A stretch of DNA of 54,475 nt from Patellaria atrata CBS 101060 (Eukaryota): assembly GCA_010093705.1 (NCBI GenBank), contig MU006089.1, positions 602,607 to 657,081 of the forward strand, given 5' to 3'. Shown here piece by piece: positions 2,227-33,743 of this stretch; the first letter of the stretch is position 1, and each line of letters opens with the position of its first letter. The translations under genes and the position numbers were made by a program. The notes beneath the pieces are model-generated. The model searched no databases, was not told the origin of the DNA, and was given only the letters and a program-made list of their open reading frames with translations.

Positions 2227-5040
2227 ATGCCCCGCCCAAAGAAGGAAGGAGCTGGCGAACCAAAGAAGAGAAGTCGTAATGGCTGCTGGTGAGTATATAG
2301 ATCCCCGCCACTGCTTAACAGCTGTACAAAAGCTTTCTGGATAAACGCGACTGACACTCCGTAAGGCCATGTAAAGGTCGAAAAGTCAAATGGTAATGCT
2401 CCGAAACCTTCAATACACTTTCATTGTTTATCTAGCATTACTAACTTTTTTTTTTCTTTAATAGCGGCGAAGAAAAACCGACGTGTTTGAACTGCGAGCG
2501 TCAAGGAGAAACATGCGACTACAGTATCAGGCTGAACTGGGGAGGGAGAACGAAGAAGAAACCAGAAGATCAGCTCGGAAGTGCTGGCGGCACGAAGAGT
2601 CTTCTAAACAGTCCTCATGAAGCAACATTTTCCTTCAATGAACCGTTACCAGACCCGCCAGCGATACCATCATACCCGCAGGTTCAAAATCAGACGTTTC
2701 CACCCCGTCCCGGTCTCCATGGAAGGTCGCTATCTAGCCCGGTATTTTCAAGCCAGGAACATTTTCATATCGATCCGGATTTGATGCGTCTCGGGCAGAA
2801 CAATGCACAACAGCCGTTTTCAGGATTTAGACAGGAAAATCAAAGTTTTCAGCCATCTCAGGGATTCCCCGACGCATTCCGCCATCAGAGTCTCAGCAGT
2901 CGACCTGCGAATCCGACCTCTGCACCTGTAGATACACGACTTCAGAATGTCCAGCATCGGGGTGTTCTGGACTACCCGTCTCCCGCAGAATCAAATATGG
3001 ACCGTGCAAATTTCGGGAACGGTGCCAGTAAATTAAGATCCTCCACTTCTCCAACTGCAATGCCACCCCCAAGAGCGCCCGGAACTGCGGAGTCTCCAGA
3101 TCGCGGTTTGACTCCCAGTGGAGAGTTCACCGTGCTCCCGGAACACCGTAGTAAGCGCCTCAGGTTGAGTCCCACCGACACTGGACCCCTAATGACCTCT
3201 ACGAATGGTTCCCATTTCCCAGAAGGTAATATGGATAAATTTGGAGGTGCATCGTTTTTGATGGAATCTTTCTTCGGTAGAGGTCCGTCCTTGAATCACA
3301 GCCCCTTACCGGGTCCTATGACGCCGGGCTCGTCCATTGCCTCAGATGAGCAAGCATCGAGACACACTCTCGCATCGTTAGGAAATTCTAAACATATATC
3401 TGCAGATGTCCGTCGGTTATCTGTTGTCTCGTTGCTTTCCAGTCCTACTAACGATCCTCACTTCGATGCTACTATTCCCACTAGACGACAATATCCAATA
3501 TCTGACAAGGGTGGTGCTACCATCTACGGTTACGACAATGGTCACTCTGATATGGATACACCGCAAAATGACGATCTGAATGCTATCACAGTTTTCAGCC
3601 CTGTTGCTTCTCATTCGGTTATGGTCGGCGAAACTCATCATGGCAACAATGAAGTAGATACTCATAGAACGAGAGATATTGCCTTCCAAGGAGACGGTTA
3701 TTACGCAAAGCCTGTACCTGTACGAATACCGAAGTCACTGGAACCTCTACCAGCTCGACTACTCGAAAAGCCCATGAACCTCTTATATTTCCATCACTTC
3801 CTGAATCATACGGCAAGAATTCTCGTACCTCATGATTGTGCTTCCAATCCCTTTAGAAGCACGTTCCCCTTGAGTAAGTCATCATAACCCCCCAACAACC
3901 GACCTCATGCTTATACATTCTTAGTGGCTGTTCAAGATGAGGATCTTCTACACCTTATGCTCGCGTATTCTGCCATTCACAGAGCACATCTTCTAGGTCA
4001 TCCGAAACCTTCAAACAGAATAGCCGTTTGGGTAGAGGAAGTATTCCCTAGGCTTCGTCAAGTTCTTGCTGGTAATCCGGACAAGATCACCAACGCTAAT
4101 CTCACAACGGCTATCATGCTTGCTTCATTGGAAATCATTTCTCCAAACGCTTTCGAAGTTTCTATATCTTGGCAGAATCATTTGACAATTGCACGACAGA
4201 TGATTCTAGCTCGTGGCGGACCCCTGGCGTTGAAAAGGTCGGATAAGAATTCCGCGTTCCTCGGCCGATGGTTTGCATATCTGGACGTTGTAGGACTGCT
4301 TAGCGGAAACAAACTTGATCCCACTCTTCATGCAGACTACTCATCAGAAGAAGCGTTTTCCGACGATGACTACCAAATTGACTGCCTGCTTGGATTTACA
4401 AATAGATGTGGTAAGATATTAGCAAAAGTTGGCCGACTGGTAAAGCTTTGTGAAAGTGCTCGTATCGACCAGCACGGCCACGTTCGCGAAGGTTGGACTC
4501 CACGACGTGATATCGCCGAAGTTGCAGAGAAGTTGCGGGCCGAATTGCAAAAAGGGAGAGAACGTGACTATAAAGGATGTACGCATGGGTCACCGAAAGA
4601 TAGTGAGGCCGAGGCTGCCTGGGATTCTCGTGAGATACATTCGACCAACGAAGCTTTCCATTGGGCCGGCCTCATCCACCTTGATCGACGAGTGCTAGGG
4701 AAGCAATCGGATGATCCAGAGGTTCAGGAAGCTGTACGCAAAATCGTTGCCGCTCTTTACAGAATTCGAGAAGGAAGTACTGCGGAGGCGTGTTTACTGT
4801 TCCCCATGTTCGCAGCTGGTTGTGATGCTATAGATCTGGCACAGAGGGAAAAGATCACAGCACGCCTGAAAGGCGTGGAAGGATTTGGTATGAACCAAGT
4901 GAGTGTCATCTCTGTTTGCTTGAATTGTCAGTTGGCTTACAATTGTTTTACAGATCGTCAAAGCGCGGACATTGCTACAGAAGGTATGGGAGACTGGCGA
5001 ATCGTGGGAAAGCTTGAGTTCTGAAGACTTCTTTGGTTAA
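2227..5040 (+). CDS. Zn(II)2Cys6 transcription factor with C-terminal fungal-specific TF domain (Fungal_trans_2 type)
   Basis: Removing introns 2289-2365 and 2393-2464 gives MPRPKKEGAGEPKKRSRNGCWPCKGRKVKCGEEKPTCLNCERQGETCDY, a complete six-Cys cluster. Two further introns (about 3874-3924 and 4899-4953) join the 466 aa and 366 aa ORFs. Last exon IVKARTLLQKVWETGESWESLSSEDFFG, stop TAA at 5040. Confidence 0.9.
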
Positions 5041-5598
5041 TTGTACATGATTCGTGTTCGATAGAATTCGGTATCCTTTCCCCTGTCGGGAGTGGTACTA
5101 TGTGGTTGCTGTACAGTTTGCTGTACGGAACCTGGGATACTACCAATTTTCGCCCTGTTCATCAGATCTCCTAGGAACTGTACAGGTAGTCAAGAGACTT
5201 TTTGATACCAGCATACCAAAAGGACAAAGTGGTACGATACGGGAAGGGATATCTTGTACGGTCTGTGACCGAACTGTCACTACAGCGATTGGCATTACAC
5301 GGAGGGGGATCAACATACAGGTTGGCGTCGGTGGGAGATGATATACTGTGAGATAGTGCGTGCATAGAGGTCTTTTGCTTTTCATTGTTCATTTTAAGGT
5401 TGTACCAAAATTTTCCAGATCTCCGTGTCACCATAAATCCCACAACGTGTAAAATATTTCTAGGAAAACATTCTCCCGCAACGCCAAGACTTCTTGCGTA
5501 CCTTACCTCAACCTCACCAGGCCGCTATCTCATCATCGGACATCCCCCATCACCCCATATCATCTCCACTCTACCCACTTATACAAAGCTCAGCAAAC

Positions 5599-6448
5599 AT
5601 GCCAATGCGGTGTACAGCCATCCTCCCCTTCCGCACCTCCACCTCCACCGTCGCCTCCCGCTTCCAATCCCTCTCGACTAGCAGCATGAGGAGCTTCACC
5701 GCAGCCACAGCATCATCGAGAATATCTAACGCAACAAGCCCCCGAGTGCGCTCCTCCACAGCATCCCTCGCCAACCCGACCATCAGGCCCTCACCAGAGC
5801 TCTTCCGTGTCCCAAAAACCCCCCCACAATCCCGCACCCTCACAACCACAGCGCCCCCTCCTTCCTCATCAGCAGCCAACGCTTCCTCAACACTGACCTG
5901 GAACCGCTTCCTCGCGCTCCGCCGCACGCGCCGCCGCATCTCGCTCTTCGCCTCCGTCATCGCGGCCCTCGGCACCACGGCTGCCGGCGCCGTCTTCATC
6001 TCGACCCGCGACCTCGACGCCGTGGGATCGCAGGTCCTAGGCCTAGACCAGGTCATCGTGCTGGGCTTGGGGACGATCGCGAGTGGAGCGCTCGGATGGC
6101 TCGTCGGGCCGTTTATCGGGGGCGCCGTGTTTGGGATGGTTTTTAGAGGTGTGAGGGGGGAGATGGGGGTGGTGGGTTGAATCTTTGCCTTCTCTTTTCC
6201 TGCCTGCTTTTGTTTGGGGTAGTGTATGGAGATGAAGCTAATGTGTGTTTGCTTTATAGAAGGAACGCGAATTCTTCGCCCGCATCAAGAAATACCGCGT
6301 CGATCCTTCCTCGTCCTCCATCGCGAACCCGGTCCCGGATTACTATGGCGAGAAGATCGGGAGCGTGGCAGATTATAGACGGTGGTTGAAGGATCAGAGG
6401 GCATTTAATTTGAAGAGGGCGCCGTCGGGGGCGAGTAAGCGGGGTTGA
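5599..6448 (+). CDS. PAM17: Mitochondrial presequence translocase-associated motor subunit Pam17
   Basis: Arg/Ser-rich presequence, LTWNRFLALRRTRRR, two hydrophobic segments (GALGWLVGPF). After an intron (about 6172-6259) the second exon reads KEREFFARIKKYRVDPSSSSIANPVPDYYGEKIGSVADYRRWLKDQRAFNLK, the Pam17 signature. Confidence 0.92.
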
Positions 6449-6480
6449 ACCGAACGATTGAGGGAGGGGGCCGGGGGAAA

Positions 6481-6520
<40 letters not shown>
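6481..6520 (+). repeat. 40-nt poly-G tract in the PAM17 3' region
   Basis: Uninterrupted run of G from 6481 to 6520. Confidence 0.9.
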
Positions 6521-6522
<2 letters not shown>

Positions 6523-7078
6523 GCGCGGGGATTGGTGATGCAGGGTGTGGTCTATGTGTTGCATTAATGGGGATACGAGGAGAGAAGGCAAGAACACCCT
6601 GTGAGTTGGGGGTTCATGTGGATTCCAAAATCCCATGGGGAAATAACATCATCGGCGTAATTGGCTTATCGGTTTTACATATCACCTGTCTCTTTTGTGC
6701 TGTGGTGAAGTTTCATCTCGTGTATAACATTTGATTCTCGTCGTGGTTGGGACATCTCCATTCGACACTTTTGTGGTAAAAGGGCGTGAGGAAGAAATAT
6801 GATGTTTTGTTGAGTAAGCTATCTTAGTGTACATGCTCCCCTCCATATGAACTTTTTGATGCCGCCTCGCTAGATGGTGATAGGGGGTTCCCACTCCGCA
6901 AAAAGGGAGAAGGAGAAAGAAACGGGGAAGGGTAATGGGAAAAGGGAATACCGAGTAGATGAACCCGGAACCGGAAACTGAAACTAAGCCGGAGAAAGGA
7001 AAGAAAGCAGAGGAACCCATCCCCCATGCCCCCTAATAAAAACCCAACCAACCCGTCCAAGTCCCCCCGCAAATCAAC

Positions 7079-9753
7079 TCAATAAAAATCACACAAATCC
7101 CCCACCTCCGCATTCCCAGTCTCGCATCCCGCCCCCACAGAATCCCGATCCATATATCCCCCATACCGACCCCGGGGCCGAGAAGCCAGTGGAGTCCTGC
7201 CATCATATTCGTCCTCGTCCCCCTCATCGTCATTATCGTTGGAGTTGGGGAGATAGAGATCCAGTTCCAGCTCTCCCTCTTCGCGCGGGGATTTCGGCGG
7301 AGTCGGCGGAGTCAGGGGGGGTGTGTCCGGTTTGAGGAGGGGGGAGGGAGTGCGTCGTGTGCGGTCGGCGTTGGGAGGGGAGGAGTCGTTTTGGGGGGAC
7401 TGGGGGGAGTTGGGAAGGGGAGCTGGGATTGGGGATGATGGGGGTTGTGTGGTCGGGTTTGGTTGCGTGTGTGTGTCGAAGGTGCTGGGTTCGATGGTGG
7501 GCACCGCGGGGGTTGGTGCTGCGTGCCAGTTGGTGAAGATTGGGGTGGGTTCGCCGTCTTGGGCTGTAGGTGGGTGGGGTACGGGCTTATTTTGATCTAC
7601 GGCGGCTAGAGAGGGGAGCTTGATGGTTGCTTGGGATGGAGTGATGGCGAGGTCGTCGCGAACTGTCGTGGCTGTTTTGAATGTGTCGTAGTCCGCTTTG
7701 GGCATTGGCGTGGTATCCTGAAATGCAGTTACTGGAAGGGACAGGTGTGGTTCTTGAACAGATCCCGAAGGTGGTGTTGGAATAACCTTCAGTTCGAGTC
7801 CCGGGGGAGGAGATTTGGGCTTTTGACTCTCGTTCGATGATAAATCTACACACTCTTCGATGTCTATGAGGTCATCTGAAGCGATAGACAATTGCTCGAT
7901 GAGATCATCCTCTTCGTCGATTTTGGCCTCCTTCTCAACGAAGACTGATCTTAATCTGAGCGATCCTCCATTCCCAGGGGCGGGGATGTCACAGGGATCA
8001 GGTAAGAATTCGGCGCGGCAGCCGGCGAATGGTCTGTAGGAGATTATCTTGCCATACGCTCGACCGGCCATGTTGACGTCCTGAAAGACAATGGTGAAGC
8101 TGTTGTGTCCGCTTGCGGTGATACTCTCGATCCGATCACGGCGGAGGTAAGGGTTGAGATTCATCATCAGCCTCAACTGGATCTTCGACGTACCGGGACG
8201 CAGATTATTCACTCGCATGCAGCGAGTGTGACGGTACTTGGTGATTGCTGTCTTTAGGGGATCGGGGACTGGCCAGGTAGGGTAGGGGACGAGGTAGACT
8301 CGCACCTGTTTGCCCGATATGAATAAGGGATACTTCCTTACCAATGTGCTATATCCGCGAGCAGCCGCTTCCCGAAAGAAGACAACCATGACAGTCAAGC
8401 TTTCCGTGATAGAGGAGGTATCTAGTAACTCGCACGAGATGAGGAGTCCTCCACGAACTTTTTCCATGACGGTCGAGAGCGCAGTGCCGAGAGGGATTCC
8501 ATCGATAATGATGGTTCGATAGACTTCTCGATCGAAGGAACGAGGAGAGAAAGCTAATCCATACTTGAAAAAGTCCGGATATTGGGATTCGGAGTAGCCA
8601 GCACTTTGGGCATGTTCCCAAGCAGCTGCCTCCAACTCTCCAGTAGACTTGAAGAGGTCACTAGAAGCCTTAGTTGAATGAGAGCCAGTGTTTGTACGGG
8701 GATCATATAGGGCTGGAGAGTTGATACTCCTGACATTAGCCGTCTTTGGTTCCAGCATGCCATTGTCTGCATGCTCATGTGCTCTGCTTCGGTCCACATT
8801 TGCTGTATGCATGCATGCTGCTGCCGGCAAGTTTAAGATCTTACTCCTGAGATCTCGTGTCTCTAATGGATTCGGGTGGGATATCTTCATGCACATAAGT
8901 TACTCTATTCGTAATTGCAACGAATGACATACCTTACCTCATTGTCTTGTCCTTCTGCCTGAGTCAACTCAATCCGTGGGACCAGGGCGCCGTGCCGAAT
9001 GAGACTGCTCCTAGAGTACTTGGCGCCGACGTTATGAGATGTAATGTTCCGAACTGCGTGCGGATTCTCCTCATTGGACAAAGGTAAATTTGTTGAATGC
9101 GGATTTGTCGAAGGCAGATTTGTCGAAGGCATATTTGTCGAAGGCATATTTGCTTGAACCGAAGATTCCTCCACAACGGTAGTACCAGAATCTTTACGAG
9201 AGGGATTTAGCGGGAAGTACTCCGTCTGTTGGTCCGTAGAAGCATTTGCAGCATCCCAAACTGCACTGTTCTTGTCTGTCCCTTGCCGCGCTGGTCTTCC
9301 GCTCGAAGTCGAACAATTGGACGAGTGGTGAGGTGAGATGTTAGCCCATACCAGTGGGATTCCCCTGTTACGAAACAACTGAATTTGCCTTAGGCGTTCC
9401 TTATACCGGCGATTGGAATGCCTCTCACTTCTCAGTGCAACCTTCAACTTTTCTATTTCACTTTCCAACTTCTGGATCTTTTTCGTCTCCCCCGCCGCTT
9501 CTGCCACGCTTGAGCCTTGGGATAATGCTAATTGCTGAAGTAAGTAAGACCTAACATTACCGTCGATTTGTTCTCGCGTGTTCAGGTGCTGCAGTTGCGT
9601 CGTGAGAACGCCGAGTTGATATTCGAGGGACTGGCCCGGCTGAGGACCTGCACATGGTTGATAGCACTGTGGAGCAGGATTGCCGAAATTGAATCCCGGA
9701 CCGGGAAAGCCATGGAGGTATCCTTGTTGTGTGTAAGCAGGATGCTGGTTCAT
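7079..9753 (-). CDS. Hypothetical protein with Q/G/P-rich N-terminus, coiled coil, two divergent RRM-like domains and Pro-rich tail
   Basis: The 282 aa and 605 aa ORFs join in phase 0 through a 53-nt intron 8937-8885 (GTAAGG...AAG). Segments YRTIIIDGIP...KVRGGLL...VVFFREAAARGY and TRCMRVNNL...FTIVFQDVNMAGRAY...AEFLPDPCD look like fungal RRM-like folds (by inspection only). Confidence 0.65.
9081..9152 (-). repeat. 15-bp coding tandem repeat (about 4.5 copies) encoding N[ML]PST units
   Basis: Plus-strand units ATTTGTTGAATGCGG / ATTTGTCGAAGGCAG / ATTTGTCGAAGGCAT / ATTTGTCGAAGGCAT; protein NMPSTNMPSTNLPSTNPHSTNLP. Confidence 0.9.
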
Positions 9754-25778: not shown

Positions 25779-27146
25779 CTACAACTTGCCCCCCAACCCC
25801 CTCAAAACCCCAACCGCGTCCCGCCTAACCCTCTCCACGACCTCCTTCGCCGCACAAACCTCCCTCACCAACCCAACCCCCGTCCCCGCATACATCGTCA
25901 GCCGTCCCTCGACCCCCCACCCCTCTTCCCCCTTNNNNNNNNNNNNNNNNNNNNNNNNNNNNNNNNNNNNNNNNNNNNNNNNNNNNNNNNNNNNNNNNNN
26001 NNNNNNNNNNNNNNNNNNNNNNNNNNNNNNNNNNNNNNNNNNNNAGCCTCCTCATATAACCGCCGGTTCTCAGCCAACTTCATCCCCCCCTCCGCGTCCT
26101 CCCAGCTCCGGTTCAACACACCCCGTCCCCCATACCCGGCCGGCCACTCCGGCGTCCCCCGCAGACTGTCATAAAGACGTGTTCGTAAGGTAGTAACGCC
26201 CCCGTCGCGCGTGGAGAGGAGCGCGCGCTGGTACCCCGCCGCGATGGAAGCTTCGTGCGTGCAGAGGAAGCGTGTGCCGACGGCGCCGCCGACGGCGCCG
26301 AGGGTTAGGGCGGCGGCGAGGGAGCGGCCGTCGGTTAGGCCGCCTGCTGCTATGAAGAGGGGGAGTTTGGGGGTGGGGTCGCGGGGGTTTTCTGAGGAGG
26401 AATAAGAGGTGGGAGAGGAAGAAGTGCATAATGCGGTCACGGCGTCGATGGTTTCAGGGACCAGGGTGACGATGCTGGCGCAGGCATTTAGGCCGTGCCC
26501 GCCGGCATCGGTGCCTTGCAGGACTAGGACGTCCGGGGAGCAGGACGAGACGATGGCGAGGGCGGACGTTACGGTGGAGGTTTGGATCCAGATTTTGGTG
26601 CGGTTTTGCGTGGTGCTGCGGACGGCGGTTGTCCAGGTTACGAGGGAGGGGAGGGAGGACGGGGCGAAGAACCATATTGCGGCGGGTGTGTGGAGTGTGA
26701 TGGCGGCAAGGAGGGAGGGGAGGGAGGCGCCGAAGTTGATTATGCCGATGCCGATTGGGAGGATGGCGGGGGAGGGGACGGGAAGGGGGGGAGAGAGGGA
26801 GGAGAGGAGGGTGGAGGCGTGGGTGAGGTGCGAGGATAGGGTGGAGAGGTCGGTGCCGCCGCCTATGAAGCCGATGCCCCCTGTGGGGAATTAGTTGGAG
26901 TGAGGAGGTCGAGTAAGGGGGTGGGTATAAGTGATGGGGATGAGGATAGGGTTAAAGGGGTGAAGAGGGGAATCGGGAACTGAGGAGAGTAATTGAAGCT
27001 GAAGAAGAGGGAATCAGACCGGCTTTGGAGATTTCAACGGCAAGAGGTGCGGCTGCTATGAGACGCATCGGTGCGCCGACTATGAGAGGTTGGCGGATCC
27101 ATGGGTAGTCAGTCTGGAGATTCGGTGGTTCTGGTGTTAGTGCCAT
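25779..27146 (-). CDS. Nitronate monooxygenase (2-nitropropane dioxygenase family, FMN TIM barrel); spans an assembly gap
   Basis: YPWIRQPLIVGAPMRLIA...VEISKA | GGIGFIGGG...VLVLQGTDAGGHG...LFIAAGGLTDGRSLAAALTLGAVGGAVGTRFL...YAGTGVGLV. One intron about 27019-26881; stop at 25779-25781. Confidence 0.9.
25935..26044. other. Assembly gap (110 N)
   Basis: Run of N characters. Confidence 1.
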
Positions 27147-27835
27147 GATGATGCTGTTTGTGAGAATACATGGTGGGGAAGCGTAGGGTATATATAAGTA
27201 CGGTAGTCATGTTAATAATAATAATTCGAGCTAGAGGAGGTGAGGTAGTTGAGGTTCGGGTTATGGATTTGTTAAGCACGTTAAGATAATTCCGCGGATC
27301 TAGAGCCGAGTGGTGCCGATCCGGGAAGGAGCCGACGCTTTAGTTCCCGAGGTCCAAGTCCTTGATCTATGGGGTCTCCTTTTTGATGTCCTCAATAGAC
27401 GATTAATACTGGAAGTCAACTCTACAGGAGGATATAGCTGTAAAAGTCTGTCCGGTTTCAGTTTAAGTATATTTAAACATCTTTCTCTGCATCACTCCAA
27501 GTTGTATTACTCTGCGTAAAGAGCAGGATGAGACTCCATGAAGGCCAATAGATATACGAAGTATTGATGAATCACAAGAGTCTTGTACGAAGTAATATCA
27601 GTTATTGTTCTTACGTGACCCAAAATCACTTTATGGTTGAACAACCAACGGATAAAAGAGGCCATATATCAGAATGTTAAAATAGCATCTCCAGTAACCT
27701 CAAAAGAATGAATAGCCCAAGACGCTATCATAGGTTTCCTGTATATCCATCCCTGGCTCTTCTCTCAATACATGCAAGATATCTCTGTCGGAAATGATTC
27801 AGAACGAATAGCTTACCATAACTCACCGGCATTAG

Positions 27836-29847
27836 TATCGTTTTCGTCCATGGTCCCTTGAGAAGCAGTCGAACATGGCGCATGAGAGACAAGGACGTTC
27901 CATGGCCGAGAGAACTTCTACCGAGTGCGACGTCCGATTCAAATATCAGTCCTCTCTTATGATCCGCATTTATCCTTCCAGGACTCCCACAATATGTGCA
28001 AGATATCACAGAAACTTTTGCGTTGTTTGCGCAAAAGCAGAGGAGAGCATGTAAGTTCAGCTAGGAATGGCGCTTTCGTATGCTAAATGCTCTATGAAGG
28101 TAGAACGGCTGATATTACTTGTAGCACATTCTCTGAGTGGGGCTATTGTAAAGTAGGTAGGTTACTGAGATCATATAATGAGTAATTTTAATGTGTGAAT
28201 AGGCTCTTGTTGGACAACTCACAGCCTTGCAGCGCACAATTACCAAGAATGTCATCGGGATCATATTCTTTGGGACACCACATATTAAATGAGACGTTGG
28301 GAGATCCCAAGATGCGCTCCACAAGATCACTTCAGCTTTTTAGGGAAAATCAGCTCCCTACATTCGATATCATGGTGAAGGAGCATTTCCCAGAAAGCCT
28401 CTCGCAACTGGATGTGGATTTCTCCATGCTCTTTAAGGCTCGGAGAAGACCTAATAATGCACAAACCTGACAGATCGTCTCATTCTATAATGAGCTTGAA
28501 ATTCCACGCATTGGCTTTGTATATTAGCACCCGTAATCTCTGGGGAGGTTACTAATCTTGTTTTCGCAGATCATGCCACCCATTAGTCTAGTTCGTCCTC
28601 CATTTAGAAGTTTAGGGCTTCCTACGGACTACGCAAGCTCGTCTTAGTTAACAAGTAAAACTGATATTGGATACGTTAGATTTATAGATGAGATCCAAAG
28701 GATCGTCGGCGACTCACTTGGTATCAACTCCCCTAATCTCTCATCAAAACCTATTACCTCCCTTGGCCCTTCTCTATTCAGCTTAAAACGTTCATTACTC
28801 CTATGGAAGAATCTCTACCAAGCGCAATACTTCCTGCGCGAAACAGTGGAGATTGTTAGTATTTTGGGTTCTGACACTGACTATGCGTACACATTTGAAA
28901 GAAAGCGCATGGCAAATGTGTATTTTGTTTGTTTCTTGAGGATGGCAGAGCGTGAACTTTGCACGCCTTTTGAAATGATTAAGGAGAATAAGTCCAGATA
29001 TGGAGACAATTTGCCCGAAACTGTGTCAACCTCTCTAGCACTGGTATATTTAGAACCAAACCGTCTCAGTGATGCCGAAGATCTCATTACCACTATCAGT
29101 GGACCAATCCAAGCAGATATCAGAGCCGCTTTGTGCTTCCGAAAATACAATTCTATGGAATCTCTAGAAATTCGCTCCAAGTTAGCAAACGCAGCAGAAA
29201 CCATGCACGGTAAGTCGAGCCTTATGGGACTACAATCCGCAACCTTCAGATCCCTAGTAGCTTTAGCCAGCGGGAAACAAACTGTTTTTGATATTATGAT
29301 CAACAAAGAGTCACGTTACAAATAATTACAGACGCCTTTTCTGGAACGCCTTCCGATCGTCCTCCGCCAGAAAGGTATCTTAGCTTTTTTGCTCCTGAAG
29401 AAACGCCGTTCCAACTTGCTACCGTCAAAGTCACTCAAACGGGAGGATGATTTGCAAAGGGCTACTAAGCTCGCATTCAACGCATCATATGGTTCGCGGG
29501 GAATCTATGCTTACCACGCGAGAAATCATGATGCGATATGTTCGATTTTCAGCGGACAACTATCAAAAGCACGTAATATCGCCACGGGTGTATCGGAAGA
29601 GTTGAAAGAGGCTGGTGCAGACCCCTCACATCCGCTATCAAGGGCATCACGATGGTTGATAGCAATGTTACAAGGGACAGACTCTTTGGAAGAACTTTTG
29701 ACGGTGATGGATCTAATGGCTTTTCTAGTAGACTGGGCCATTTCCAGCCAGTGGCTTCCGGACCTGATATTCAGTGGAGCGATATTCCACGAAGAAGAAG
29801 AGAGTCATGCGCTAAGTTACTCGCAAACAAGAGAGTATACGTCCTAA
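27836..29847 (+). pseudogene. Disrupted SesB/SERAC1-like alpha/beta hydrolase fused to TPR-like helical region
   Basis: IVFVHGP...TW...WPRELLP (frameshift near 27948) VLSYD..., ILLVAHSLSGAIVK* (nucleophile elbow; TAG 28154-28156), GIIFFGTPHIK* (TGA 28290-28292), IVSFYNE, TDIGYVRF (TAG 28645-28647 just before it). Then in frame LALVYLEPNRLSDAEDLI and HPLSRASRWLIA, with TAA at 29323-29325. True 5' end not resolved. Confidence 0.75.
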
Positions 29848-30263
29848 ACCTGGTGTTTCTTCATCTCGACCAAATTGAAAAGTGTCTACTCTATCAGATT
29901 CGTCACCCCTTGCTTACTTTACGAGCTATAGAACATTCTCTACATTGGCTCATTATTCCAAGAAAGCATGATCATTAAGGCAAAATACTGACCTTAATGC
30001 CGTGTTTAGCAGTAAGGCTTATATCCAACAAGGTACTACCCCAGTCTAACGAGATTTTGGCCTTGTACGAGTATTAGCGGTTCTTGAACAATGGATCAAC
30101 GATAGTGTCTTGAATTACTTTTTAGGTCGTGCACAGAAACTTCCTCTGGCGCAGAGACAATAGGGACCTGCCTAAAGCAAGTAAAGATTAACCTAAAGAA
30201 GACAGGGAAAAGATTTTTCTCTAACATTGAAAATCTAGAGTGGGCAATTTGAACACGATAGCA

Positions 30264-31620
30264 CTATTCCACCGACCACAATGTAGCAGCTTCAGACTTC
30301 CCTGAGATAAACTTTCCACCATCTGTCAAATTTAGAGCCGACTCCCTTTGCAAAAAAGATGGATCCGGGTCTCTTGTCGAATGTTCCATGCCTTTATTCT
30401 CTAGCAACGCTATGACGGCTATGTTATATATTTTGCAGGCGTCTGGTCGGTCGGTTGGTGTCGGTTGGAAACAGGCTCTCATCAGCACTTTCAAGTTTTC
30501 CGTATATTTATCGAACTGTCCCGATAAAATTGACTCTAGCTCCGTTTTTGGCATAGACCCTGAGCACATAAAGTAGATTGTACCTGCGTTGAGATCAAGT
30601 CAGTATTGTACGTTGACATGCTCATGGCCAAGTATAGCTTACATCTGCGAGAGTAGATATCGCGCTTCTCTGTCCATACGACTTTCGAGTTCCCCTCGCG
30701 AATTTCCTGATGTGTAGGGTAAGTGCTTGAATATATATATGCTTGTGATGATTTCAACTACTCTGTTGCTGTACGCTTGCTATACACGTACTAGAGGGTA
30801 TTCAATCTTGTATTTTCCATAGCTCTTTCAAGACATCTAACGTGGGGGCATGTATACCCTTTACATGGATCTTTCATCAGGTACAGGGTGCTAAATGTGT
30901 TCTTAAGATAGCACAGCGCTATGGTACAGGAAAGGGCAAGATGGAGAGAGGTACTCACCGGGGCAACGAAAGGATGGTTCCAATGTGTTTTGAAATCGGG
31001 ATGTTCTATTTTGAGTTCGACCGAGTGTCCAAAATCTCCCAGTTTAACACTAAGTTTACCATGAACGTCATAGAATAGGAAAACTAGGGTATGCATCGTA
31101 AGCGCCGTAACCGCTTGGAGAAGCTTTAGGTAGACCCACTATTGTCCGGTTTTATATCTCGGTGTAGGATCCGGCTCCGTTTTGAGAGATCCATTTTGGT
31201 ATCAATTTTAATGTCTTCGTTGGTCACATGTAAATATCTATAATGACAGTAGATGAGAGTTGAAGCAATTTGCTTTATATAGTGCCAGATATCCACTTCG
31301 TCAGGTTTCAAGCCCCGGGTTTCTAGATTACTGCACCAGGAAAGGAGATTTCCGTCTCTGCAGTATTCCATATAGATCTCACCAATCTTTGCATTCGATT
31401 TGGTGTATAGTAATTGAAGGTGCTTGTAACGAATAATGTAAGGATGCTCAAGCCTTCTTAACGACTCGTATTCGCTTTGAAGCTCCTCCGTCTGAGTACT
31501 CTTTGGAAGCATAACGTATTTACACGCAGCTTTCTATATCAATATCAGTAATGCTTGAAGATCGCTCCCCCGGAAAAGCATCTCGTCTCTTGTAGTCGCA
31601 CTCCCGACTTATAGTACGCT
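30264..31620 (-). pseudogene. Ser/Thr protein kinase (NIMA/Nek-like motifs), probably degenerate
   Basis: Exons give AACKY (subdomain II Lys), EYESLRRLEHPYIIRY, IYMEYCRDGNL, ILHRDIKPDN|I, VKLGDFG, PFVAP|E, KRDIYSRRC (normally DIYSLGC) and RACFQPTPTDRP. No intact Gly-rich loop or first exon was found, and the candidate upstream exon contains a TAA. The activation-segment IGT lies in a shifted frame. Confidence 0.75.
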
Positions 31621-32055
31621 TATGACAGGAAAACTTGGGACGTGTGCTGTATAGGTCCATAAGATTTCACAAGAGGATACAAATTCAACAGTGTTCCGTG
31701 GCGTGTACAACAAGCGTACTGTATAGTGAATTATCGAGAAGTGCTATGACATGGAAAAAGAGATTACATACATGGTCATCCGAGATTCTCTCAGCTACTA
31801 CAATATTGCCGCCGATTCTCTAGTCAGTGGTCCGATAAAGAATCTTGAGCACTTCTCGGTGAGGATACCTTTCCACTGTTAAGAGTAAAGAAGCGATAGC
31901 CTATCGGAAGATGTATGGTCTTAGTGTCAACAGACGTCGTAATCCTTCGCACCGTCTAACGCGTACTCATAGTGGAGCCGAAGTTTTTATTCTAAGAGCA
32001 ACTATACAGCAAGCCGAGAGTACCACGGAAAAGCCGATACGAACTCTTTCCAGCT

Positions 32056-33743
32056 ATGGCAGAAATCTTTACCATTATCGCCTTTCCGGTTGCAGCCTAT
32101 CAGACCATCGAAAAGTTCTATCAATTTGGACAGTATGTTCATAGGAAGTTGGAGGTGGACAGGACCACTCGACCGGAAATTGAGGCAATTCGTGAACATA
32201 TGAAGAGCCTTTCGGAAGGAAGTATTAAAAAGAATATGGAGAGAACGAAGTGGGTCTTCGAGTAAGACCATATTGTACAGAGCACTAAAATGAAGATAGA
32301 AGATAAGCTCAAAAAGTTACTTGAAACCCTAAAAGTGATTGGAGACGCTGTAGAGAAATCGATCGACAAAAGTGGAGAATTGAAAAAATTGAAATACACC
32401 CTTTTCTACGAAAGGAACATGAAGAAGGCTGTCAATGAACTTGAGATATGGGAAACTAAGTTCTGGCACCTCCATACTATCAACATAGACGAGAACTTAC
32501 CAGGTACTCACCTACTCGCTGGATCTCATTTCGCACCTGTTAAGGGAAGGGGCGGGATCTGGCCATCGGCCGTACCTCCACTACTCCGCTTGGTTATGCT
32601 GAGTACAAGGAAATGGGTAAGTTCCGAGAAGTCTGCGTATTGATTGAACGCACCCAGGCAGTCGAAGAGGACGGCCTTCCACTAATGTCACGGGGCAGGT
32701 TATTCTATAGAGGAAGATCGAAGAGCTGTAGTGGAAGAGGCAAAGGCTATTGCAGCTGATCTTACAGGAAAACTCCATGAGACTATAAGGGGACTTGCGA
32801 CTGGAGGCATCCTAAGATGCTTAGGATACCGAGATTATCCTATGACCGAACTCATATTTGAAGTTCCTGAAGGATGCGCCATAAACCCACGAACATTGAG
32901 GCAGATTCTTACTGAAGGTCGGGGCGGGAACCATAACAATATACTAGCGCCCTGGAATTTCAGAAATAGATGAATTAGTGAGGTCGCTTTTACAATGTAT
33001 GCTGTTAATGCTGCAGGATATGTTCATAAAAACCTGTCCCGATAACATTATCATGTTTTCTAAAGAATCTCGTTCGGACTTGCAAGACAGCTCGATGATG
33101 TTCCCTTTCAAAGATCTCGGCCCGGCATATCTTATGGGATTGCGTCTAGTTCGGAAAGTGGATATGGCCTCCCATCGTTACGGTGATGACGACTGAACCA
33201 AGAACTTCTACCGTCACCCTAAGCGACAGGGCATTTCACCCCAAGACCGTTACGAGCCTAAACATGACGTGTACAGTCTGGGGGTTTGCCTCCTCGAATT
33301 CGGACTCTGGGAGTCATTCATTGTAGAGGAAGATGGTGAACCTGCTCTCAGCAAGTATTTCCTCGATGCTGCAGAGGAACATGCTGGATGCCCCCCATCT
33401 AAATTTGGAGACTTCAACCGTCCACAGGGCGAGAGATATAGCAAAATGACCCCATTATGCTGTAGCTACCAGCTCAAAGACGTCTTTGTAAAGATCGCCG
33501 AGGCCCGACTTCCTCAACACATGGGGACTGACTTCACCGAAAAGGTTGTACGATGTTTGAGTAATGTAGAAGACTTTATTTTGAATGATATTATGCTGGA
33601 GGAACGGAATATTCTTGAGTGATGGCCCTTTAAGTGATCTGGATTGTGCCGGGAAAGGAAATGAAGTCCTAAATTTTATCACCTCCTTTGTTACGCTGGA
33701 TACTTCTCGATCGCTGGTCATTGGTTGTACTGGACCTAAATAG
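32056..33743 (+). pseudogene. Disrupted HeLo-like N-terminal domain plus kinase-like domain protein (fungal 'het-s domain' kinase-like family, MLKL-like architecture)
   Basis: Hydrophobic N-terminal helix MAEIFTIIAFPVAAYQTIEKFYQFG, then a helical bundle (KLKYTLF...KKAVNELEIW). C-terminal family motifs GILRCLGYR, GYVHKN/xPDNII, AYLMG, D*TKNFYRHPKRQG, HDVYSLGVCLLEFGLWESF, LPQHMG...VVRCL. Stops at 32263-32265, 32971-32973 and 33194-33196, plus frameshifts near 32550, 32700, 33030 and 33620. Confidence 0.78.

Follow-up and report, generated by a model that had tools for sequence, protein, structure and literature searches.

A decayed head-to-head kinase and pseudokinase gene pair in Patellaria atrata is a copy of a two-gene module widespread in ascomycetes

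The stretch of DNA analysed here (the window; 54,475 nucleotides of contig MU006089.1, GenBank assembly GCA_010093705.1, G000:C1:602607-657081) comes from the 28.7 Mb assembly of the Dothideomycete Patellaria atrata CBS 101060. It contains two genes arranged head to head, a protein kinase gene on the minus strand and, on the plus strand, a gene whose product combines an N-terminal helical bundle with a kinase fold lacking the HRD and DFG motifs (Table 1). The pair represents a dead copy of a two-gene module that is widespread in ascomycetes. The architecture of the module, the loss of catalysis in one of its proteins, the head-to-head linkage, the co-inheritance of the two genes and a conserved Ser/Thr site are the parts shown by the analysis.

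Table 1. Positions in the window of the kinase gene, its divergent partner and the region between them.
Feature	Position	Strand	Basis or remark
Kinase gene	31533-30264	minus	four exons; stop at 30264
Kinase exon with beta3 Lys, alphaC, YCH insert and HRDIKPDN	31140..31533	minus	Pfam Pkinase E 9e-12
Kinase exon with DFG and activation segment to VAP	30959..31083	minus	P0003 model; splice junctions
Kinase exon with Glu of APE and degenerate subdomain IX (DIYSRR)	30643..30706	minus	P0003 model; splice junctions
Last kinase exon, C-lobe and short tail without recognised domain	30264..30583	minus	Pfam; P0003 model
Divergent intergenic region	31534..32055	none	contains acceptor preceding beta3
N-terminal hydrophobic helix and helical bundle (probably HeLo/HELL/MLKL-4HB-like)	32056..32505	plus	AlphaFold2 model; in-frame stop 32263
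Pseudokinase domain, VHKN for HRD, no DFG	32506..33571	plus	frameshift-aware alignment to P0004, P0007
Activation-loop Ser, six residues past invariant Arg; candidate phospho-acceptor	33170..33172	plus	family column
C-terminal tail, frame ambiguous	33572..33743	plus	VLNF motif like homologues' tail in another frame, 33666-33677

An initial annotation of this DNA had described a minus-strand kinase with the Lys, HRD and DFG motifs, and such a gene was located: the whole kinase matches Pfam Pkinase (E 2.6e-25), with the beta3 Lys within KAACKY (31533-31516), HRDIKPDN at 31164-31141 and DFG at 31036-31028. The database protein P0003 is identical to the window kinase; its model starts at 31512, downstream of the beta3 Lys and 544 bp from the partner ATG at 32056, in agreement with the divergent start about 0.5 kb away that had been noted. 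The best PDB sequence matches of the kinase are NEK2 (E 1.7e-15), CDPK and NEK1, and none of its seven PDB matches with E < 1e-10 is a RIP kinase; a test for NEK/NIMA likeness placed it closest to NEK2/NIMA, with the YCH insert present before HRD. By its sequence, the window kinase is thus classed as NEK2/NIMA-like and not as a RIP/TKL kinase. Because it is only 32% identical to L014, a NIMA-like gene of the same genome, it appears to be a diverged NIMA-like paralogue rather than an orthologue. Lys, HRD, DFG and APE are all present in this kinase, and its four exons are open across 296 codons (chance about 0.03 at the break rate of the partner gene); its tail of about 50 residues has no Pfam match. 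A three-frame reading of the intergenic region against L016, L022 and L023, whose partner kinases have a Gly-loop exon at the corresponding place, revealed no open exon upstream of beta3 that combines a start codon with a Gly-rich loop; a more distant first exon is possible. Without the Gly-loop exon, and with DIYSRR where DIxSxG (DxxSxG) is expected, the window kinase is probably itself decaying too. The intron within the APE motif (30707-30958, minus strand) is about 250 bp long, as compared to 56-59 bp for the other two introns, and may contain an insertion.

The divergent partner had been described as a hydrophobic N-terminal helix followed by a helical bundle and a kinase fold with HKN and LMG motifs, and all of these were found at the places claimed. 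Its motifs include VHKNL (33022-33036), YLMG (within 33125-33139), YRHPKRQG and HDVYSLGVCLLE; LMG occupies the DFG-equivalent position and is followed by Leu, as compared to an aromatic residue in 89 of the 91 family members aligned below. The N-terminal segment is hydrophobic (15-residue Kyte-Doolittle mean of 1.69). The partner aligns end to end with the intact proteins P0004-P0008, with a C-lobe identity of 44-55% (48-55% to P0004-P0007), and is interrupted six times in about 507 codons, by three in-frame stops (32263, 32971 and 33194) and three frameshifts (near 32560, 32690 and 33037). The same six breaks were obtained from frameshift-aware alignments to P0004 and to P0007. Intact homologues can be aligned across the stops with no gap, which rules out introns; two other stops, at 32641 and 32683, were ruled out as lesions because the frame they interrupt is not the coding one in this interval, which is bounded by two compensating frameshifts. 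An assembly error is unlikely to have caused the breaks because deep Logan contigs (X1 and X2; depth 320-480), which are DNA contigs of one sample and hence not independent, show no substitution or indel across the pair. The partner gene is almost certainly a pseudogene, and the window copy of the pair is incapable of function and a relic only. Dinucleotide indices gave no clearly raised signature of repeat-induced point mutation across the island occupied by the pair (composite ≤0.09 in 30-34 kb), and this process is not claimed here.

A survey of homologous neighbourhoods, set beforehand as a test of the pairing, revealed strong enrichment for divergent kinases. A metagenome scan confirmed at least 393 relatives of the pseudokinase among at least 589 pattern matches, and the best 80 were reduced to 61 distinct loci at 90% identity. 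Both flanks were scanned in six frames with a kinase profile seeded from three database kinases and five neighbour kinases, which favours partner-like kinases, equally on every side; 24 loci with <2 kb upstream were left out and 37 were kept. A divergent kinase was present within 4 kb in 27 of these 37 distinct loci, and a tandem upstream kinase in one; on the downstream side (37 loci with ≥2 kb), a tandem kinase was found in 3/37 and a convergent one in 0/37. One locus (L024) is convergent, but its flank of 1971 bp falls below the 2 kb cut. When 4 kb upstream was required, a divergent kinase was present in 23/31 loci. Far flanks contained one kinase gene in the 153 kb examined, and the chance expectation is 1-2% per locus (120-215 kinases in this genome); adjacency of kinase and pseudokinase is far beyond chance, although the surveyed loci are related by descent and the 27 are not independent events. 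Pfam Pkinase was confirmed for 23 of the 27 divergent partners, while those of L016, L022, L056 and L086 were identified by our own kinase profile together with HRD or DFG motifs. Three further loci with short flanks (L027, L039 and L045) also have a divergent kinase. The spacing between the divergent open reading frames in the family ranges from 241 to 2818 bp; tandem or convergent layouts occur in L007, L024, L032, L042, L069 and L074.

Many of the partner kinases are accompanied by additional domains. WD40 (L044, L049, L076/L080, L083), TPR (L042) and KA1 (L028) tails are encoded in the same open frame as the kinase, as is a fruit-body lectin at the N-terminus of the L019 kinase. Fusion is likely for domains in the next frame on the same strand, which comprise WD40 (L040, L075, L086, L022), ankyrin (L021, L041), TPR (L031), NACHT (L026), fucose lectin (L016), ubiquitin repeats (L023), WW (L067) and RhoGAP (L066). 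Ankyrin, WD40 and TPR are the usual sensor repeats of fungal NLRs, according to the accessible part of a published account (PMC4986451). In L030, a second kinase-like frame without a canonical HRD (3333-4112, minus strand) lies behind the partner kinase, possibly as a tandem kinase-pseudokinase. Both genes look broken in L023 (6300-9500), with two stops in the pseudokinase and one just past the likely start codon of the kinase. One clade (L054/L087/L089/L090, L081 and L091) is without a kinase; a NACHT gene with ankyrin-like repeats lies near its members (L081 1-1520, minus; L089 560-3740, minus; L091 12344-13021, plus), and its short Asn/Val-rich N-terminal segment might be an amyloid motif. 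This NACHT gene is possibly another activator and possibly a chance neighbour in repeat-rich DNA.

Kinases and pseudokinases show evidence for co-inheritance. Quick IQ-TREE trees (LG+G4 with the Shimodaira-Hasegawa-like approximate likelihood ratio test, SH-aLRT, as the only support; weak backbones) were built for 40 kinases and 69 pseudokinases, and the groups common to both trees include L026+L031, L021+L024+L041, L066+L067, L044+L049, L071+L078 with L072 and L094, and L027+L040+L083. Patristic distances of kinases and pseudokinases are correlated (Mantel rho of 0.77 over 33 pairs, reached by 0/5000 permutations), also within the large clade alone (rho of 0.79 over 23 pairs). The partner kinases fall into at least three kinase groups, and L019, a member of the pseudokinase clade of the window, has an unrelated lectin-kinase as partner. 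As judged from these sequences, the partner has been exchanged between kinase families and has remained a kinase, which is more telling than tree congruence. The window pseudokinase groups with L016, L022 and L023 (SH-aLRT of 97). The intron after AP of the APE motif is common to the kinases of the window and of L016, L023, L026 and L031, and the subdomain-IX intron is common to those of the window and of L016, L022 and L023; L014 has neither. The window is assigned to the module because its clade and introns match those of L016, L022 and L023, despite the long, unplaced branch of its kinase.

The N-terminus of the partner is predicted to form a helical bundle, as the initial annotation had proposed. 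An AlphaFold2 model of the first 150 codons in the window (X at the stop) gave a predicted local distance difference test score (pLDDT) of 86.2 and a predicted template-modelling (TM) score of 0.80, with a short hydrophobic helix followed by four long helices; a model of the intact homologue P0004 (28-row alignment, pLDDT of 78.7) has helices in residues 14-145 and a kinase fold past residue 150. The hydrophobic first helix is kept in 8/8 sequences tested. Three weak lines (the Foldseek search, the family profile and the ESM features) point toward HeLo/MLKL. In a Foldseek search of 350,542 chains, ranks 1, 2, 5, 7 and 9 were occupied by the N-terminal domain of human MLKL (E of 0.8-2.0, best TM of 0.53). 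A VIA fold search of the bundle, with 16 chains at Z ≥8, matched MLKL 4BTF (Z of 9.1, root-mean-square deviation, rmsd, of 3.0, 100 residues aligned) and a further MLKL chain (Z of 8.7), along with NRG1.1 CC-R (Z of 8.3) and AtMLKL3 (Z of 8.2). By ESM features, P0004 residues 1-150 fall closest to HeLo clusters (0.92 and 0.90). The family profile matches full-length MLKL 4BTF in a single stretch across both domains (positions 18-394, E of 4.8e-4), and distant family members (L007, L008, L009, L010, L105 and L106) pass Pfam HeLo. The bundle of the window is regarded as a likely, not proven, relative of the HeLo/MLKL bundles. HET-S HeLo structures are not among the listed Foldseek and VIA matches and may lie beyond them.

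The kinase fold of the P0004 model matches BRAF best (Z of 21.6, rmsd of 2.6, 250 residues aligned); the rat MLKL pseudokinase matches it with a Z of 17.9 (rmsd of 3.4, 244 residues aligned). A family alignment of 91 sequences (29 database proteins, 61 distinct loci and the window) showed that the catalytic loop has His and Lys in 91/91 members, followed mostly by Asn, and that an HRD-type or DFG motif is present in 0/91. One column of the activation loop is fully Ser/Thr (Thr in 72 and Ser in 19 of the 91), and the Arg six residues N-terminal to it is invariant (91/91). Just one other column of 270 is fully Ser/Thr, namely the structural Ser of DxYSLG, which formed part of the search pattern, whereas the patterns used to collect the loci excluded the activation-loop Ser/Thr and Arg columns. 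The activation-loop phosphate of PKA-type kinases is bound by the Arg of HRD together with a basic residue located five positions past the Asp of DFG. The family has its invariant Lys (HK, in place of the HRD Arg) and its invariant Arg at these two positions; the dead kinase fold retains flanking basic residues alongside its invariant Ser/Thr. Retention of the Ser/Thr site with loss of catalysis matches what a phospho-switch predicts. The column could represent a phospho-site, and structural reasons for its conservation are also possible. Since the loop has a different length in distant paralogues such as L105, the Ser/Thr column requires a separate alignment there.

Likeness to RIPK3-MLKL, which had been put forward for the pair, held for the architecture, and not for the ancestry of the kinase: shared features are a helical bundle joined to a pseudokinase, HKN as compared to HRN or HGK in the catalytic loop, absence of DFG, an activation-loop Ser/Thr and a dedicated, presumably active kinase. 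The available part of one source (PMC11893596) gives the catalytic loop of MLKL as HRN in mouse and HGK in human, its switch as phosphorylation at S345 (mouse) or T357/S358 (human), and its retained VAIK lysine as K219 (mouse) or K230 (human). In contrast to that system, the fungal kinase is NEK2/NIMA-like or of another family, the fungal beta3 Lys is replaced by Asp or Glu, the fungal genes are adjacent and head to head, sensor domains are carried on the kinase, and the fungal action is read from sequence. The partner kinase would be an analogue, not a homologue, of RIPK3 because it is NEK2/NIMA-like here and of several families elsewhere. By analogy, we infer that the module works like RIPK3-MLKL; by the tests run, its proteins belong to neither family. 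Plant MLKLs (AtMLKL3, 6KA4; wheat Pm13, as far as the available part of its description goes) and CC-R domains (NRG1.1, 7L7V) have bundle folds that match at the Z scores given above, and AtMLKL has the same two-domain plan; in contrast, sequence identity to the plant proteins is 7-12%. To our knowledge, no adjacent cognate kinase gene has been described for plant MLKLs.

The HeLo-(pseudo)kinase architecture is already published. According to a figure legend and other available parts of PMC12881547, a kinase or pseudokinase domain is attached to some HELL domains, an arrangement that recalls MLKL, and clusters of two or three genes frequently make up fungal death pathways. These proteins share the architecture with the family described here, and paralogues in the P. 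atrata genome combine PF14479 with the same YRHP pseudokinase; unlike the published cases, for which the available parts name no activator or pairing, the window clade misses Pfam HeLo. The NWD2/HET-S amyloid and gasdermin-protease clusters, as described in the accessible portions of PMC10197012 and PMC12881547, are alike in having adjacent sensor and effector genes, frequent decay and a sensor enzyme with WD40, TPR or ankyrin repeats as a fusion partner; in the present module, the signal would be phosphorylation, not amyloid templating or proteolysis. Unlike HET-S/HELLP effectors, the partner has a kinase fold at its C-terminus and a kinase, not an NLR, as neighbour; no scan for amyloid motifs was made. 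No description of kinase/HeLo-pseudokinase pairing was found in the full-text literature searched (mostly open papers, without supplements), and the available parts of PMC9815663, PMC10197012, PMC11476962, PMC12258605 and PMC4986451 do not mention it. The gene pairing is the new part, as far as the literature searched goes.

On balance, we favour an explanation in which phosphorylation of the pseudokinase loop by a sensor kinase releases the bundle, with a breach of the fungus's own membrane as the outcome. The variable tail of the kinase would sense a non-self or danger cue, upon which the kinase would add a phosphate to the invariant Ser/Thr in the activation loop of the pseudokinase. Two invariant residues, the Lys of HK and the Arg past the DFG-equivalent motif, might hold this phosphate, and the released bundle may oligomerise and, as in RIPK3-MLKL necroptosis, permeabilise the membrane of the fungus itself. 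Sensing, phosphorylation, the direction of control and membrane action are the parts of this scheme that we infer. The suggestion that the neighbour is a cognate activating kinase gained from the divergent kinases (27/37) and the co-inherited genes, but the window copy itself is too broken to work.

Several results weigh against this explanation. For the bundle, no Foldseek match reached E < 0.001; the top VIA match was IncA (Z of 11.5), above MLKL, and Z below about 13 is common for bundles; in the ESM comparison, only 5/10 of the best Atlas matches belong to the same family. Pfam HeLo (PF14479) was found in 0/27 close homologues (P0004-P0030), and its gathering cut-off (23.2) was not reached by the N-terminus of the window, with only one match (E of 0.058) among 37 N-termini. 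A profile of the N-terminus only gave nothing below E 0.17, i.e., chance matches only, against the PDB, and the profile-profile match to HeLo-positive paralogues had a probability of 24% (E of 8e-4). The claim of a HeLo/4HB fold therefore stood as regards the helical bundle and the three weak lines toward HeLo/MLKL, but not as regards Pfam HeLo. The pseudokinase fold is no nearer MLKL than BRAF, which means that fold does not tie the kinase part specifically to MLKL. The presumed beta3 Lys column (P0004 E199, in strand 190-200 of the model, assigned by strand order in the model and not by superposition) contains Asp in 38, Glu in 36, Asn in 6, Lys in 1 and a gap in 9 of the 91 sequences; an MLKL-type VAIK lysine was not found there, Asp/Glu being present in 74/91. 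Ten of the 37 loci have no divergent kinase, eight of them with no kinase seen nearby, and, in the P. atrata genome, five of eight family members (L008-L011 and L106) have no kinase within about 3.5-4.7 kb. The closest relatives (P0004-P0008) came without genomic context, and the nearest loci with context are about 30% identical.

Among other explanations, a guard or toxin-antidote arrangement, in which phosphorylation by the kinase keeps the bundle-pseudokinase off and death follows kinase inhibition, loss or allelic mismatch, is unlikely, although the same linkage, tree and phospho-site data fit it and the window effector has six breaks where the kinase exons have none, which is the order expected if the antidote is not lost first. 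Open-frame pseudokinases without a kinase seen nearby (L037, L038, L057, L081, L087, L091, L008-L010 and L106) argue against such an arrangement, sensor-type tails would better suit an activator, and the window kinase is itself without its first exon. Improbable, too, is a non-lytic signalling pair, in which the pseudokinase would be an allosteric regulator, scaffold or decoy and the bundle a protein-interaction domain. Kinase-pseudokinase pairs in plants and animals act as regulator, scaffold or decoy pairs, and the weak bundle fold scores and the absence of Pfam HeLo from the close clade are consistent with this alternative; in contrast, the conserved hydrophobic first helix, the Pfam HeLo matches of the six distant members and the MLKL chains that head the Foldseek list count against it.

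Linkage might also reflect co-expression or co-mobility (a bidirectional promoter or a fast-evolving island) without mutual action, which we regard as very improbable. Congruent trees count for little on this point because linkage alone can produce them; tandem and convergent layouts occur, and the window island also contains a third broken gene and a dispersed repeat (see below). However, the partner remains a kinase across swaps between unrelated kinase families, and the dead kinase fold retains its invariant Ser/Thr and basic neighbours. For the window alone, chance adjacency would mean that an unrelated NIMA duplicate landed next to a dead gene: its kinase is a long branch (1.52) in no supported group of the kinase tree, scores near-equal against L014 (79 bits), P0183 (77) and L016 (69), and has a best other database relative of 34% identity. 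This alternative is barely credible, as two intron positions common to partner kinases are not found in L014, orientation and spacing are as in the family, and the prior chance is 1-2%.

The value of these findings lies in the recurring module, not in the broken copy of the window. We consider the odds about even that a large class of necroptosis-like immune modules, so far undescribed, exists in filamentous ascomycetes. In these modules, a sensor kinase, recruited repeatedly from unrelated families and equipped with swappable WD40, ankyrin, TPR, NACHT, lectin or ubiquitin-like modules, would directly phosphorylate the invariant activation-loop Ser/Thr of a cognate HeLo-pseudokinase and thereby kill the cell. 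If so, phosphorylation would be a third mode of signalling by which fungal death effectors are fired, in addition to amyloid templating and proteolysis; fungi would have arrived independently at the logic of RIPK3-MLKL, and kinase-repeat proteins would be a class of immune sensors. The neighbourhoods give a candidate activator for each paired family member, and a single candidate phospho-site.

The P. atrata genome contains at least eight family members. A divergent kinase lies beside the window gene and L105, and a tandem kinase with TPR beside L007. The L105 pair is head to head on G000:C5 (about 1298700-1303450; positions within the locus 4202-6169, minus, and 7293-8951, plus); L105 has Pfam HeLo (E of 6e-17) and a pseudokinase, and its neighbour is a kinase whose open frame has HRD and, in place of DFG, DFD, making L105 a convenient test pair. 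L007, also on G000:C5 (positions within the locus 3485-5338 and 5933-8272, plus), consists of a HeLo-pseudokinase followed by a tandem HGD/DFG kinase with a TPR-like tail, which groups with the partners of L021, L024 and L041. A long open frame at L010 (2305-4647, minus) directly follows the HeLo-pseudokinase L010 4517-6385 and may represent the same gene or a neighbour; it carries what we take to be IQ-like and protease-like motifs.

The pair of the window occupies an island of about 6 kb between a nitronate monooxygenase gene and a gene that, from its sequence, is presumably RPB11-like; other genes of the window encode telomerase, a TBC GAP, a RhoGEF-BAR protein, HSP20, and UBX and PITH proteins. 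At 25934-26045, both Logan contigs skip 110 bases, with three other letters between, and the skipped ends read N, which probably indicates a masked or gap stretch of the window. A dispersed repeat of about 55 bp (29973-30031) recurs at least 19 times elsewhere in the genome (82-91% identity) and is possibly the remnant of a transposon end. A third, heavily broken gene (27830-29850, plus) converges on the kinase and contains, in shifting frames, the motifs IVFVHG (27837), AHSLSG (28124) and GIIFFGTPH (28257), which presumably derive from a SesB-like alpha/beta hydrolase. This hydrolase-like part is followed by about 400 codons of an unnamed domain; a Pfam search of the gene gave no match, and no paralogue of its second part was found in the genome. 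L055 has a comparable hydrolase-like frame (568-1113, minus) behind its partner kinase.

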